Shown in pieces: positions 11,365-62,530 of a DNA stretch of 64,000 nucleotides (positions are counted from its first letter, which is position 1; each line of letters starts with the position of its first letter). The stretch is from Octopus vulgaris. Taxonomy: Eukaryota. A program made the position numbers and the translations under genes. The stretch spans positions 1,860,001 to 1,924,000 of the forward strand of contig OX597840.1 in the NCBI GenBank assembly GCA_951406725.2, in the 5' to 3' direction. Under the pieces are notes generated by a model. It did no database searches and was not told the origin of the DNA. It worked only from the letters and a program-made list of their open reading frames with translations.

Positions 11365-11545
11365 TCGACAGTTTTAATAAAAATAAAGAAAAAGCAAACG
11401 AACGTGATGACGTGCACCAGAGATGTAAACGCTTGACACTTGGTGAAAGGAGAGTTTGACGTTTCGCGCATTACTCTTCGTCAGAAAGAGAAAGGGAGAA
11501 TCGTGAAGAAATCGCTTGTGGCTCACGCGTATTTACTTTCCTGAA
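11365..11545 (-). mobile_element. Short PLE-terminus-like element with minimal hammerhead motif (11455-11487)
   Basis: Minus: UUU CUGACGA A GAG UAAUG CGC GAAAC GUC AAA; core intact, one mismatch in stem II. Confidence 0.6.
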
Positions 11546-12487
11546 TTGAACAGAAGTAGAAACATATATATGTGTGTGTGTGTGTGTATCTATCCATCTA
11601 TCTGTCTGTCTATTAATCTATCTATCTGTGTATGTCTATGCGTGTGTATCTGCGTGTGTATCTGTGTGTCGGTGTGTGTCTGTGCGTGTATGAATGTACG
11701 TATGCTTAAGTATATTTCTATATATGTATATATGTTTCCATCACTCTCTCTATGTCTCTGATATGTCAGAGTACAACACTGATGTAGGAAAGGAAATATA
11801 AAAAAAAGAAAAACGTGTGGAATTTGGTGCTATATCATGAAACCTTTAAGGATGTAATTGAGATTGTAAAAAAAATTAACCATACAGCAATCACCCTTTC
11901 CCTCATCCAATTAGTGTAGTTCTATTAAATCTTTTAATTTTGATGATTTCGCCCGTTAAGACAAGATTACGCTAGAAAGCCCAAACTGTATTTATTTATT
12001 TGTTTGTAATTAAAAACCAAAATAGATATTTAAAACGATTAAGAATTATATCGCAGATAATGTTAGCAATATAAAGTAAAACGAATACAGATTCAGGGAG
12101 AGAAATTTTGAGAATTCTAATACATTCCAAAGTATTACCATAACAGATCCAAGGCAGAGTTATATGGAAATTTATGAAAATGAGATAATGTGTAGATAAC
12201 AAGAAAAAAAAAGACAAGATTATCAATGGAAAGAAACTGAGAATACGTCTAAGGGCATGCAGAAGTAAGATCTAACGAAGAAAGAATGTACAGGAAAAAG
12301 GAAAATGATCGTACTGGAAGGACCTTTGCACGTTTGCTCTAACATAGCTTAAGGAGGATCATTGTGATGAGTGGAAACCGGTCGAATCAAATTATACTGA
12401 ATCCTATCAAATAAACGTGTATATAAATATATATGTATGTATCTTTACTTTTACGTATGTACGGATATATATATATATTCAGTATTT

Positions 12488-12878
12488 GCTGTGTGGTAAG
12501 TAGCTTGCTTACCAACCATATGGTTCCGGGTTCAGTCCCACTGCGTGCCATCTTCGGCAAATGTCTTCTGCTATAGCCCCGGGCCGACCAATGCCTTGTG
12601 AGTGGATTTGGTAGACGGAAACTAAAAGAAGCCTGTCGTATATATGTATATATATATATGTATGTGTGTGTATAAGTTTGTGTGTCTGTATTTGTCTCCC
12701 TAGCATGCGTGACAACCGATGCTGGTGTGTTTACGTCCCCGTCACTTAGCGGTTCGGCAAAAGAATAAGTACTTGCTTGCAAAGAATAAGTCCCGGGGAC
12801 GATTTGCTCGACTAAAGGCGGTGCTCCAGCATGGCCGCAATCAAATGACTGAAACAAGTAAAAGAAAAGAAAGAAAGA
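12488..12878 (+). mobile_element. SINE family A
   Basis: Matches the other family A copies end to end, lacking the first few bases. Confidence 0.9.
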
Positions 12879-12895
12879 ATGAAATATATATATGT

Positions 12896-13234
12896 TGGCT
12901 CGGTGGTTAGAGCGTCGAGCTTACGATCGTGAGGTTGTGAGCTCGAATCCCGAACCGGGCTGCGTGTTGTGTTCTTGAGCAAAGCACTTTATTTCACGTT
13001 GTTCCAGTTCACTCAGCTGTAGAAATGAGTTGCGACGTCACTGGTGCCAAGCTGTATCGACCTTTGTCTTTCCCTTGGATAACACTGGTGGCGTGGAGAG
13101 GGGAGGCTGGTATGCATGGGCGACTGCTGGTCTTCCATAAACAACCTTGCCCGGACTTGTGTCTAGGAGGGTAACTTTCTAGGTGCAATCCCATGGTCAT
13201 TCATGACCGAAGGGGGTCTTTACCCCCTTTACCC
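12896..13234 (+). mobile_element. tRNA-derived SINE, family D (tRNA-Arg(ACG)-like head)
   Basis: TGGCTCGGTGGTTAGAGCG...CTTACGATC...TCGAATCC, then GTGTTCTTGAGCAAAGCACTT; 3' (TTTACCC) repeat; related fragment at 40980-41085. Confidence 0.75.
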
Positions 13235-58672: not shown

Positions 58673-58752
58673 AAAGTTAATCCAAACAAGAACGCACAAA
58701 AAACACAACGCGAGTACGTGGAACAAATATAGTATTATTGGACGCTCAGGAA
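58673..58752 (-). mobile_element. 3' fragment of family H1 (no ribozyme)
   Basis: AAGTTAATCCAAACAAGAA...GGACGCTCAGGAAAGA in (TA)n. Confidence 0.75.
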
Positions 58753-59585
58753 AGATATAGATATATATGTGTATATATATATATATATATATATATATGT
58801 GTGTGTGTGTGTGTGTGTGTATACATTTGTGTGTGGGTGGGTGCATGTGTGTACTTACAAACATATACATACCTATGTAAGTGCGAGCGCATGTATGACT
58901 GTATGTATGTACCATTATATATTTGTTACCAGAGCAGTTTTGTTCCAAACTCAGATTACAAACTTCAAAGATCTGTGCTCGCAATCTATATGCACAATTT
59001 TGAGCTATCTTGATCCATTTTGAGCGTTATAATGCATACGTGAAACATACGGAATAAGTTAAAGAATGACATTTTTAATTCAAATTATGAACATTATCTG
59101 TAAAATGCCTCAGGTGTCCAAATCGCAATTAATGAGATTAACAGGCGCTGAGTTAAAACGTTTTCAAAATTGTTTCAACATAACACAGGTGCCACGGCGT
59201 GTTTAGCTACATTCCAGTAATTCTTCGCTAGATTTTCACAGAAAATATGAATGCCAAATGTCTCAGTATTAAAAAAAAGTCTCAGAACAATACACCAGAG
59301 AAACACAAAGAATGCAGTTTCGAAAATGAAAAAGACGTCTTACCGCGGTAATGTTCTGTTAATCGACAATGTCATCTTTCGTATAAGGAAAAGAAAAAAA
59401 AATCGTAAAAGTGTACAATTCTGAGATGAATCTAAACAGGTAACTATATTCATGTATATATATATATATATATATATATATATATATATATATAATTTTA
59501 ATCCAAACGGGAAACAAAAAAACAACAACAATGGAACAATTACAGTATTATTATTAATAGGCGCTCAGGAAATGGAAGCAGGGAG

Positions 59586-59620
59586 GTATGACGTTTCGAG
59601 CGGAGCTCTTCGTCGGAAAC
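59586..59620 (-). ncRNA. Minimal hammerhead motif, U4C core variant, at the PLE 3' terminus
   Basis: GUUU CCGACGA A GAGC UCC GCUC GAAAC GUC AUAC. Confidence 0.6.
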
Positions 59621-62530
59621 ATAAAGAAGGAAGAGAGAGGAAAGAAAGATCCCGGAGCGGGCAACGGAGATAGAGAAAAAAACGACTGGTGTTAGGAGTA
59701 GCACATGGTGAAAGGCGGATGTTTACGATAACAAGAGCAAAGTGGGTTTTTAAAGGCAAAAGAGTGGAGACAAGGTTGGTAACGCAACAGATGTGTGTGT
59801 ATGTGTGAGTGTGTGCGTGTGCGTGTGTGTATGTGTGTGTGTGAGGCGAGGTAAAAAAACAAAAAATATATGTATGTGTTAGTGTGTGCGTCTGTGTGTA
59901 GGCGTGTGAGGTAGGGCGAGACGGTGGTCAGCATAGCAGCAGCATAGCAGACAAAGGTCAGTAGTAAGAAAAGGAGGAAGGAGGAAGGGAGGGAGGGGAA
60001 GGGGTGGGGGCGTATGTAGCGTGCCAGCGTGTGTTGAGTAGTAGTGTGTGTGTGTGTCCAGTGTCGTGGTAGTATTAGTGGCGAGTAGATTGAATGTGTG
60101 TAAGAGTAATGTATATGTTTAAGCAATGTGTGTATATGTGTGCGCGTGTGTGTAACGAAAAAAAAGGGGGGGGTTTAGGAAAAGGACTCCAGCGGAGGGG
60201 AGATGGAAGAGTGGTCCCGCGGAGACGGGCGTGGGAAAACCCAACGACAAGCGACATCCCAGGAACGGGCGGGAGGTCTCGTCGGGTCCAAGGGCGAGGT
60301 GCATGCGGCACGCATGCGTGCGCGAGCCGGCGCAAGCGCGTGTGTGCGCGAGCCTGCGAGTGTGCGCGTACGTATGTGTGTGTGTGGATGTGTGAGTGTG
60401 TCTGTGTGTATGTCTGGGTGGCAGTGTGTCCGATGAATGTATGTGAGTATGTGTGTATATATGTGTGTGCATAGATGTATGTCCGTGTGTGTGTGTGTGT
60501 GTGTATGTGTATGAGTGTGTATGTATGTACGTGTGGGTGTGGGGAAGTGTGTGTATGTGCATGTGTGTGCGCGAACATACAGGTGGGTGAGTGAGTGCGT
60601 GTGTGTGTATGTATGTGTGAGTGTGTATGTATGTGTGTGTAGGATGCATGTATATGTATGGGTGTATGTATGCGTGTGTGTATGTATGTATGTGTACGTG
60701 CGTGTGTGTGTGTGTATGCGTGTAGGTGTGCGCGTGTGCATGCGTGAATGTATGTGCGTATGTGTGTATGTGTGCATGTGTGTGGGTATATATGTGTGTG
60801 CGTATATGTGTGTGTATGTGCGTACATGTGTGTGTGTATGCATGTGTGTGTGTAGGTGTGTAGGCGTGTGTGTATAGGTGTATGTATGTAAGTATGTATG
60901 GGTGTGTCCGTGTATGTGTGTATGTATGTGTGTGTATGTAGCTGTGTGGGCGTGTGTATATGTGTGTGTATGTAGGTGTGTGGGCGTGTGTATATAGGTG
61001 TATGTATGTATGTCTGGGTGTGTCCGTGCATGTTTGTGTGTGTGTGTGTATGCATGTGTATGTAGGTGTGTGTGTACGTGTGTAATGTATGTGTGTATGC
61101 GTGTGTATGCGTGCGTGTGTGTATGTAGGTGCGTGTGTATGTGTGTGGGAGTGTAGGTGTGTGTGTGCGTGTGCGTGTTTATGTTGGTGTGTGCGTATGT
61201 GAGTGTGAGTGTATGAGTGTTTGTCATGCATGTGTGTGCGCGTGCAGGTGAGTGTGTGTGTAAGTATGTGTGTGTGTATGTTTGTGTGAGTGTGTATGTG
61301 TGTATGTCTGTGTGTATGTATGTGCGTATAGGAGTATGTAGATATGTGTGTGTGTATGTATATGGGTGTATGTATGTATGTGTGTGTGTGTGCATGTGTA
61401 TAAGTATATGCGTGTGTGCGTATGTGTGTGTATGTGTATGTGTGTGTGTTTATGTATGTGTGTATGTATGTGTGTAGGCGTGAGTGTGTAGATGTATGTA
61501 TGTATGGGTGTGTGTCAGTGTGTGTTTGTGTGTGTGTGTAGGTAGATGTGTGTGTCTGAGTGAGGGTATGGCTGTGTAGGTGTGTGTGTGTATGAATGTA
61601 AGTGTGTGTGTATATACAAGTGTAATGTATGTATGTGGTGTGTGTGTGTGTGTATGTGTACGTGTGCGTGTGTATGTGTGTGTGTGTATGCGTGTGAGTG
61701 TGGGTGTATGTGTGTATGTCTGTGTGTGTGTATGTCTGAAGTGGGTATGTGTGTGTATGTATGTATGTGTGTGTGTGTGCGGGTATGTGTGTGTGTGTAT
61801 GTGTGTGTGTGAGTAGGTGTGCGTGTATGTATGTGGGTAGGGATGCATGCGAGTGTGTGGGTATGTATGCAAACATACGCAAGCGCACATCCGAAGCAAG
61901 CCCACACACACGAAGCGCGCTCACGCACACAGCGCACAAGCAGTGCAACGCAAGCCCAAAGGGGCCGACCGAGCCCCCAGCGCGCGCCAAGGCGCGCGAG
62001 CGCAAAGGCCCTCGAACGCCCCGCTGCGCGGGAACCGAGGATCCATCAGCCAAAACCGGAAAGCAGAAAAGAGGGGGGGGGGCTGCCTGGATGCAAAAAG
62101 GTGTATGTGTGTGTGCATTCAGTGTACGGGTGTGCATGTGTGGGTATGTATGTATGTATGTGCCTACATGTATGTGTGCATGTGTGTGTGTGTGAAGTAT
62201 GTACGTGCGGTGTGTGTGTGTGAGTGTGTGTGTATGTATGTGCGTATGTATGTGTGTGTGTATGTGTGTATGTATGTCTGTGTGTGTGTGTGTGTGTAAG
62301 TATGTATGTGTGTGTGTAAGTATATATGCGTGTGTGTATGTATGTATGTGTGTGTGTATGTGCATGTGTGTCTGTAAGTGTGTGTGATTAAATGTGTGAA
62401 TGTATGTACGTAGATGGGTCTACGTATGTGTGTGTGTGAACAGGCGTGTGGGAGGTAGGTGGGTGGGATATAGGTGGGTGTGTGTGTGTGGGTGGTGTGT
62501 CCGAAAAAAAAAAAAAAAAAAAAAACGGTC

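Follow-up and report, generated by a model that had tools for sequence, protein, structure and literature searches.

A 64-kb stretch of the Octopus vulgaris genome (contig OX597840.1, positions 1,860,001 to 1,924,000; hereafter the window) harbours 12 short elements with hammerhead ribozyme motifs. Our analyses indicate that nine of them are the 3' ends of protein-coding Penelope-like elements (PLEs) of five families and that the other three are likely of the same nature, a reading to which we assign a probability of roughly 0.85. An earlier, sequence-only reading of the window had proposed several tiny non-autonomous families mobilised in trans by PLE proteins. Its attribution of the ribozymes to the minimal type I hammerheads of PLEs is borne out, and so is the involvement of PLE proteins in placing these elements. 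The idea of tiny families moved in trans was not retained, because in all five families for which longer copies were sought in the genome the ribozyme segment terminates elements coding for a reverse transcriptase (RT) and a GIY-YIG endonuclease, and their 5' ends are staggered. The families are additional PLEs of known clades, not a new kind of tiny mobile element.

The window is rich in microsatellites and belongs to a 2.8-Gb genome (227 contigs), from which an unbiased sample of 80 stretches of 10 kb (800 kb) was taken at fixed marks over 30 contigs. Hammerheads were sought with a strict descriptor, CUGANGA...GAAA...UH with stems I to III and one optional extra nucleotide after A9 or before G12, and 30 block-wise dinucleotide shuffles of the window served as the control. 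The descriptor applied to the genome sample accepts U or C at position 4 and was controlled with 10 shuffles. Hammerhead-like or decayed motifs are present at all 12 coordinates first listed, 13 motifs altogether as the element at 49331 has two. They had been described as the motif or a close variant of it; their presence is confirmed at every place, but core and stems are perfect in only 2 of the 13 (16328, forward strand, and 39494, reverse strand), versus a mean of 0.03 perfect motifs in the shuffles. With one core mismatch allowed, the window yields five matches against 0.5 ± 0.8 in the shuffles, one of the five, at 32966, looking like chance. The motifs at 14177, 15757 and 18324 have U instead of A at core position 6 (A6U), and those at 13338, 41187 and 48385 are decayed. 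Beyond the window, 19 matches were found in the 800-kb sample and 0 to 1 in its shuffles. An Rfam search of the window at gathering thresholds gave no match. Minimum-energy folds of single and doubled motifs produced a hammerhead only for the 39364 monomer and were not used as evidence.

As had been claimed, the stems vary among families and yet pair. In the four families compared, both sides of the stems change together, the first pairs of stem I being U-A, U-A, U-A, G-C in the family called H1, U-A, U-A, U-A, C-G in H2, C-G, A-U, C-G, A-U in the family of the element at 41086, and A-U, A-U, U-A, A-U in that of the element at 49331. Within a family the pairing is inherited and is no evidence of selection. 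The proposed density of one element per 5-6 kb applies to the window; genome-wide, it is lower by about half, with approximately one homology match per 12 kb (67 in 800 kb, a count that includes both arms of fold-backs and ribozyme-less pieces). These matches are distributed as 16 for H1, 23 for H2, 15 for the 41086 body and 7 for the 49331 type, with rarer matches of the 13275 (4), 11365 (1) and 17126 (1) types. Scaled to 2.8 Gb, the H2 matches correspond to ~8 x 10^4 copies. The further statement that nearly all elements adjoin (TA)n holds for 10 of the 12, but the element at 41086 lies outside (TA)n and that at 11365 ends in (AC)n.

The ~200 bp is not a unit length. In the unbiased sample, the 5' ends of H1 are spread between 70 and 229 nt from a fixed 3' end (16 copies), and those of H2 between 65 and 271 nt (23 copies). 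Matches ranked by their likeness to the query did appear to have fixed 5' ends; this is an artefact of the ranking, and the unbiased sample was used instead.

The element at 59493, initially listed as an H1 copy, proved to be the end of a 4.0-kb, 5'-truncated copy of a Neptune-type PLE that we named NepA. This copy (59493-63468, reverse strand) lies between (TA)n tracts and comprises the end of an open reading frame (ORF), a CA-rich 3' untranslated region (UTR) and a terminal repeat. The latter, a pseudo-long terminal repeat (pLTR) at 59493-59792 on the same strand, contains a minimal hammerhead that runs from its core at 59616 to H17 at 59590, with C instead of U at position 4 (U4C) and a U-U in stem I. 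The ORF remnant (62531-63468, reverse strand) codes for the RT thumb (63187-63468) and, with a frameshift, for a CxxxxCxxC linker and a CCHH GIY-YIG endonuclease (62534-63121), which Pfam matches below its cut-off (E=0.006). The segment 59473-63468 aligns over 4001 nt, with 98.2% identity, to a complete unit (pLTR, ORF, pLTR) at another locus (L048), and its ORF remnants match the 870-aa frame of a second locus (L049) at 100% and 97% (tblastn).

Units of ~6.2 kb with the order pLTR, leader, ORF, 3' UTR, pLTR are present in three of the five NepA loci fetched (L048-L050); four of the five have an upstream terminal repeat, one of them partial, and the fifth has none. Open frames for RT and endonuclease span 870 aa in L049 and 760 aa in L051, with Pfam matches to RVT_1 and GIY-YIG below cut-off. 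The NepA frame shows the DKG motif, the CX2-5CxxC linker and the CCHH endonuclease that mark the Neptune clade, the diagnostic motifs being those given by Craig et al. (2021; PMC8557442). All of 15 loci compared share one 3' end, followed by (TA)n (13 loci) or by the leader (2 loci), and their 5' ends lie from 310 to over 1800 nt upstream of it. The 40 best genome matches to 59493-59792 are all 100% identical and the 40 best matches to the coding part are 99-100% identical; the family is thus very young. The repeat, leader and ORF of NepA are all represented in contigs of four runs presumed to be RNA; these contigs show no joints, such as an intron in the 5' leader would leave, and are uninformative on cleavage, circles or splicing. 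The 3' UTR (59800-62530, reverse strand) consists of 2.7 kb of mostly degenerate (CA)n and would be masked as a simple repeat by most annotation; it also has GC-rich islands at ~60150-60360 and 61860-62110 that are 95-99% conserved among copies.

H1 corresponds to the 3' end of a sister family, NepB. Its copies in the window are found at 16251-16461 (forward strand), with an intact minimal hammerhead at 16328-16354, at 18203-18399 (reverse strand), with U4C and A6U in the core at 18324, and at 48264-48448 (reverse strand), with a decayed hammerhead whose core is at 48385. A second, shorter piece at 18437-18531 (reverse strand) stops before the ribozyme, and homology revealed a ribozyme-less H1-related 3' piece at 58674-58755 (reverse strand) that was absent from the first list. 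One H1 locus continues into a leader and an ORF start homologous to those of NepA. Among 15 loci found by a leader search, H1 directly precedes the leader on its 5' side in 12, and 8 of these 12 reach the RT, with 53-92% identity to NepA. The parents of H1 are close homologues of NepA in the Neptune clade.

Six of the 15 H1 leader loci show a jump to the tail, each from its own point 386-963 nt into the leader or ORF, and four of the six jumps resume 218 nt from the 3' end, at a predicted hairpin. These internally deleted copies (L053, L056, L060, L062, L065 and L067) each have a left breakpoint of their own, the right one being nearly the same in all. Seven of the 16 unbiased solo copies of H1 likewise begin at 196-229 nt. 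The deletions suggest template jumps of the RT at a stall. As the jumps resume at that place, an RT stall ~215 nt from the H1 end would set the apparent 200-bp size.

The third Neptune-type family, NepC, ends with H2. The window copy at 39364-39563 (reverse strand) has an intact minimal hammerhead at 39494-39467, which is the minority allele; those at 14092-14203 and 15634-15820 (both reverse strand) have A6U in the core at 14177, and A6U with G8A in the core at 15757, respectively. H2 copies extend to varying lengths upstream into a common CA/CT-rich 3' UTR. The end of a PLE ORF with 47-74% identity to NepA was found upstream in 10 of 25 long H2 loci, and the RT was reached in all four loci that were extended. 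A pattern search for an upstream H2 pLTR followed by the leader returned three places, none with an ORF, and the parent was instead linked through the 3' UTR. The H2 parents are also close homologues of NepA in the Neptune clade. The description of H2 as a hammerhead family is correct as to the motif, but 84% of 45 distinct copies have U at position 6, and the eight matched copies of the unbiased sample all lack A6. Since A6 is a conserved position of the hammerhead core, H2 has probably spread with a weakened ribozyme.

At 49319-49632 (the element listed at 49331), the window contains two 3' ends of a Hydra-type PLE in inverted orientation, a short arm (49319-49443, reverse strand) and a long arm (49448-49632, forward strand). 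Both hammerheads (49416 and 49476) have U4C, intact stems and a 4-bp stem III. Twelve relatives are inverted pairs as well, with unequal arms and variable centres, a form that the palindromic query favours. In one locus (L158) the arm follows an ORF with the DKT motif, a CxCx5C linker and no CCHH, which are the marks of the Hydra clade; on these diagnostics, Hydra replaced Nematis, which had been considered as the parent. By eye, the L158 protein closely resembles that of Hydra-1_Obim, which Craig et al. (2021; PMC8557442) list in their supplement as a family that inserts in (TA)n. The ribozyme of the Hydra-1_Obim record has the same geometry and a different sequence, and the 49331 family is thus its sister.

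The element at 41086 belongs to a PLE of the Penelope/Poseidon type. Three parts make up the 3' region of this family: a tRNA-like segment (77 nt), a linker of (AAT/AAC)n and a ribozyme-bearing body (179 nt). The window has the hammerhead-bearing body of the 3' end at 41087-41240 (reverse strand; decayed core at 41187) and the 3' half of the tRNA-like segment, with the B box, at 42283-42322 (reverse strand; 97.5% identical over 40 nt to L149), both from the same element; the two are parted by the (AAT)n linker and an inserted piece of a long interspersed nuclear element (LINE). Five of 46 matches to the tRNA-like head extend upstream into a GIY-YIG frame. A search with this frame gave 2378 first-look candidates, from which 30 ORF-end loci were read: the tRNA-like segment follows the stop codon in all 30, and the ribozyme body is present in 26. 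Eight loci were extended, and all share 1.1-2.0 kb of RT-coding sequence. The ORF ends code for a CCHH endonuclease without a linker zinc finger, as in Penelope/Poseidon elements. We initially regarded this family as a free-standing short interspersed nuclear element (SINE), with no partner in 1.45 Mb of loci; we abandoned this view once a PLE ORF was recognised in the common upstream sequence. Among 12 unbiased loci, six copies start at the tRNA-like segment (-8 to +12), two reach into the ORF, three start in the body and one is unclear. A small hairpin is located exactly at the start of the segment, whose A and B boxes match the consensus for such boxes. ARAGORN detected no tRNA gene in 20 loci of the family, and E-value scans of the family's loci with Rfam gave only microsatellite-driven miRNA matches, with no tRNA and no hammerhead.

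The LINE piece in the (AAT)n linker (a 3' piece at 41432-42136, reverse strand; restriction-like endonuclease frame at 41622-42065) is presumably R4/Dong-like, and similar pieces occur at 40085-40714 and 53409-53810 of the window. Ends of the same or other LINEs recur in that linker in L146, L147, L148, L152 and L228, which indicates that the linker acts as a landing site.

The three remaining elements have no parent ORF among the 328 loci collected, nor in two neighbouring stretches. Each of them resembles a PLE-type hammerhead. The element at 11365-11560 (reverse strand) looks like a Neptune-like 3' end of an older family: it follows the H1 layout, its core at 11484 is intact, with an A-G mismatch in stem II, and it is ~72% identical to two other loci. 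At 13275-13339 (reverse strand), a decayed short arm, with a decayed core at 13338, represents a fold-back family with a Hydra-type hammerhead. Its ribozyme flanks are similar to those that close the record immediately preceding Hydra-1_Obim in the supplementary data of Craig et al. (PMC8557442). The third element (17087-17370, reverse strand; listed at 17126) ends in (TA)n and has a hammerhead with a U3-A8 core variant at 17164-17132; its core and stems, with a 6-bp stem I, are the same in a second copy (L196), and L176 has a comparable motif downstream of a Neptune-like ORF.

The insertion sites agree with the clade assignments. A (TA) lies within 10 nt of the 3' end in 14/14 copies of H1, 13/16 of H2 and 3/3 of the Hydra type, that is, in 30 of 33 Neptune- and Hydra-type copies versus 2 of 6 of the Poseidon type. 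In Craig et al. (2021; PMC8557442), a zinc finger in the linker is tied to (TA)n targeting, and our Poseidon-type elements, which lack this finger and mostly do not end in (TA)n, agree with that link. The (TA)n preference had also suggested a Naiad origin for the five linked families; this was rejected as their endonuclease is C-terminal. Pseudo-LTRs are direct in the NepA (4/5) and H1 leader (12/15) loci, and inverted in the 49331 family and in 5/8 of the extended Poseidon-type loci, where an inverted 3' piece lies at the 5' junction. The insertions lie in microsatellites, which would hide target-site duplications.

According to the same study, the PLE endonuclease nicks the target and the RT of the element carries out target-primed reverse transcription. 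In our families, the endonuclease would nick (TA)n and the RT would be primed at the constant 3' terminus of the RNA that encodes it, usually falling off within 70-270 nt and leaving little beyond the terminal repeat. A fold-back at a stall would give inverted pairs, and the short and inverted copies as a whole would be products of early stops, stalls, jumps and fold-backs. The distance from the 3' end inward to the predicted cut is 107 nt in H1, 103 nt in H2, 97 nt in NepA, 106 nt in the 49331 family, ~91 nt in the 41086 family and ~109 nt in the 13275 type. The inserts run through this site, so that the RNA copied had either escaped cleavage or been re-ligated into a circle after it. Minimal hammerheads are described as inactive as monomers and weak as dimers by Cervera and de la Pena (2014; PMC4209133). 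We favour a model in which weak, dimer-dependent cutting of tandem read-through RNA would be helpful and not essential, and the predominance of A6U in H2 suggests that cleavage may be dispensable.

Several observations nevertheless weigh against the assignment of all these elements to PLE 3' ends, or against the ribozymes having a needed role there. The clade labels were set by diagnostic motifs (DK motif, linker cysteines, CCHH) and not by a tree, and the Pfam matches to RVT_1 and GIY-YIG are below cut-off. The Hydra-type arm is linked to an ORF in only one of five fetched loci, and the elements at 11365, 13275 and 17126 are those with no parent ORF in the loci collected. Short copies vastly outnumber ORF-bearing ones, and some short copy may have been re-transcribed and inserted anew. 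Seven of the 16 unbiased 5' ends of H1 fall at 196-229 nt, and half of the Poseidon-type starts coincide with the tRNA-like segment; in both cases a short master would give the same picture. The centre of the 13275-like fold-back is nearly constant in 25 loci, although the palindromic query selects for that form and one locus, L188, extends ~90 nt further. Lastly, the U4C and the U-U in stem I of NepA, as well as the A6U of most H2 copies, argue against a needed cut.

These points have to be weighed with three other explanations. It is extremely improbable that low-complexity DNA produced these motifs by chance. Rfam finds none of them and most window copies have core changes, but their excess over the shuffles, the compensatory stem changes between families and their similar position near the 3' end in PLEs of three clades all contradict it. 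We also consider it improbable that they represent parallel families of non-coding, ~200-bp retrozymes, whose RNA would cleave itself and circularise and which PLE proteins would mobilise in trans. The tens of thousands of short copies expected from the 16 H1 and 23 H2 matches in 800 kb and the covarying stems would fit such elements, and a derivation of animal retrozymes from the terminal repeats of PLEs has been reported (PMC7229834; bioRxiv 10.64898/2026.07.22.740005). However, besides the coding parents and the staggered 5' ends, no head-to-tail arrays with a ribozyme per unit, which define non-LTR retrozymes, are found at the element sites in the window, and neighbouring copies in L003, L075 and L096 are split by (TA)n and have different 5' ends. 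The ribozymes are of the minimal PLE kind and not of the canonical kind; furthermore, each short copy has one cut site, so that no unit-length circle would be released from it alone. The retrozyme explanation is thus largely refuted for H1, H2 and the families at 41086, 49331 and 59493.

A mixed origin, in which the tails derive from PLEs but short copies became their own templates in at least one family, appears less improbable, though still doubtful. The best candidate is the 41086 family, whose ~300-nt RNA would be made by RNA polymerase III (Pol III) and re-inserted by the PLE protein, as a PLE-mobilised SINE; the 13275-like fold-back comes second. The six starts at the tRNA-like segment out of 12, together with its A and B boxes, would be accounted for in this way, as would the 25 fold-back loci of the 13275-like family, which have no adjoining ORF but unrelated neighbours. 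Hammerhead-bearing, Pol III-driven SINE-like repeats are also known in schistosomes (PMC6765202). Nevertheless, the segment follows the stop codon of a coding element in 30/30 loci and begins exactly at a small hairpin, so that truncation at a structured stall fits too; inverted 3' pieces also flank five of eight ORF-bearing copies, and neither ARAGORN nor Rfam recognises the segment as a tRNA. We only tentatively envisage that a Poseidon-type PLE captured a tRNA-type promoter behind its stop codon, that copies truncated there would act as Pol III-driven, hammerhead-bearing mini-elements which the PLE enzyme propagates, and that a Neptune family multiplied alongside with a broken core. A SINE present in tens of thousands of copies would then have been born in one step from a PLE tail, which seems possible and rather unlikely. 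If short Poseidon-type copies are indeed re-transcribed by Pol III, they would be SINEs carried by a PLE; no description of such elements was found in the literature searched, a search that did not include Dfam, Repbase and SINEBase.

With 3' ends of coding PLEs as our preferred explanation, the window families have many features in common with known systems. Cervera and de la Pena (2014; PMC4209133) report thousands of minimal hammerheads per genome, mostly single and probably from truncated PLEs. The metazoan PLE hammerheads described there resemble ours in their short stem I, the extra nucleotide between A9 and 10.1, the G10.1-C11.1 pair and the palindromic ACGU for stem III, as well as in the U3-A8 variant, the occurrence of several families per genome and the single dispersed copies. 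What sets ours apart is the frequent occurrence of U4C and the prevalence of A6U in one family. Our families do not appear in the text passages or the supplement file of PMC4209133 that were searched, where the word 'Octopus' is absent. More generally, the literature searched, outside Dfam, Repbase and SINEBase, yielded no specific description of these families in octopus.

Similarly, the endonuclease-containing (EN+) PLEs treated by Craig et al. (2021; PMC8557442) share with ours the RT with a C-terminal GIY-YIG domain, partial-tandem pseudo-LTRs, copies that are truncated at the 5' end or both truncated and inverted, tails restricted to one end and a (TA)n preference in the presence of the linker zinc finger. 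By comparison, the 2.7-kb CA-rich 3' UTR of NepA and the tRNA-like segment and (AAT)n linker in the 3' end of the Poseidon-type family are distinctive. Non-LTR retrozymes, as described in PMC7229834 and bioRxiv 10.64898/2026.07.22.740005, likewise have short hammerhead repeats related to PLE terminal repeats; in contrast with the single staggered ends found here, they form tandem non-coding units of 170-400 nt, each with a mostly canonical ribozyme. The Sm-alpha and Sj-alpha elements of schistosomes (PMC6765202) have a Pol III-type promoter followed by a hammerhead, like the short copies of the 41086 family. Here, unlike in those elements, the promoter-like segment is located in the 3' end of a coding PLE, with PLE-type inversions and not tandem arrays.

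The dense dispersed hammerheads of such genomes, which were proposed in 2014 to be the debris of PLE insertions, are now tied to coding parents in three clades. The role of hammerheads in PLEs is stated to be unclear in the published literature. The octopus families offer a test bed for it, as they include a very young U4C family with near-intact frames and an older, abundant family mostly with A6U, and as the predicted cleavage position falls 90-110 nt from the fixed 3' end in six families.

Other observations concern related sequences in the window and the genome. Eight descriptor matches in the sample lie outside the window families (L173:7625, L174:6290, L186:4293, L190:7129, L213:7402, L236:1177, L163:9481 and L221:7317), and we read them as further PLE or retrozyme families. 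Divergent PLE ORF remnants, some AT-rich and Neptune-like and others Hydra/Nematis-like, were seen at L176:8200-9400, L006:1-1300 and L210:4600-5100 and in L261 and L255, which points to more PLE families in this genome. The window segment 13621-13733 (reverse strand) belongs, as a decayed copy at 77%, to a repeat of ~112 nt that targets (TACA)n and has nine matches in the 800-kb sample; the segment contains GAAAC and a palindromic stretch similar to stem III, with no CUGANGA upstream. Fragments of other retroelement frames are present at 53601-54068 (reverse strand) and 26070-26435 (forward strand), which we take to be RTE-like and Gypsy-like, respectively. Local, repeat-rich tandem duplications of ~1.8 kb (27585-29619 and 30036-31435) and ~1.5 kb (7614-8831 and 9111-10373) were also noted from their corresponding series of microsatellites. 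Lastly, the window includes tandem arrays of 184-nt units (x2.9; 22777-23302) and 117-nt units (x2.3; 33988-34256), with no match to the hammerhead descriptor.

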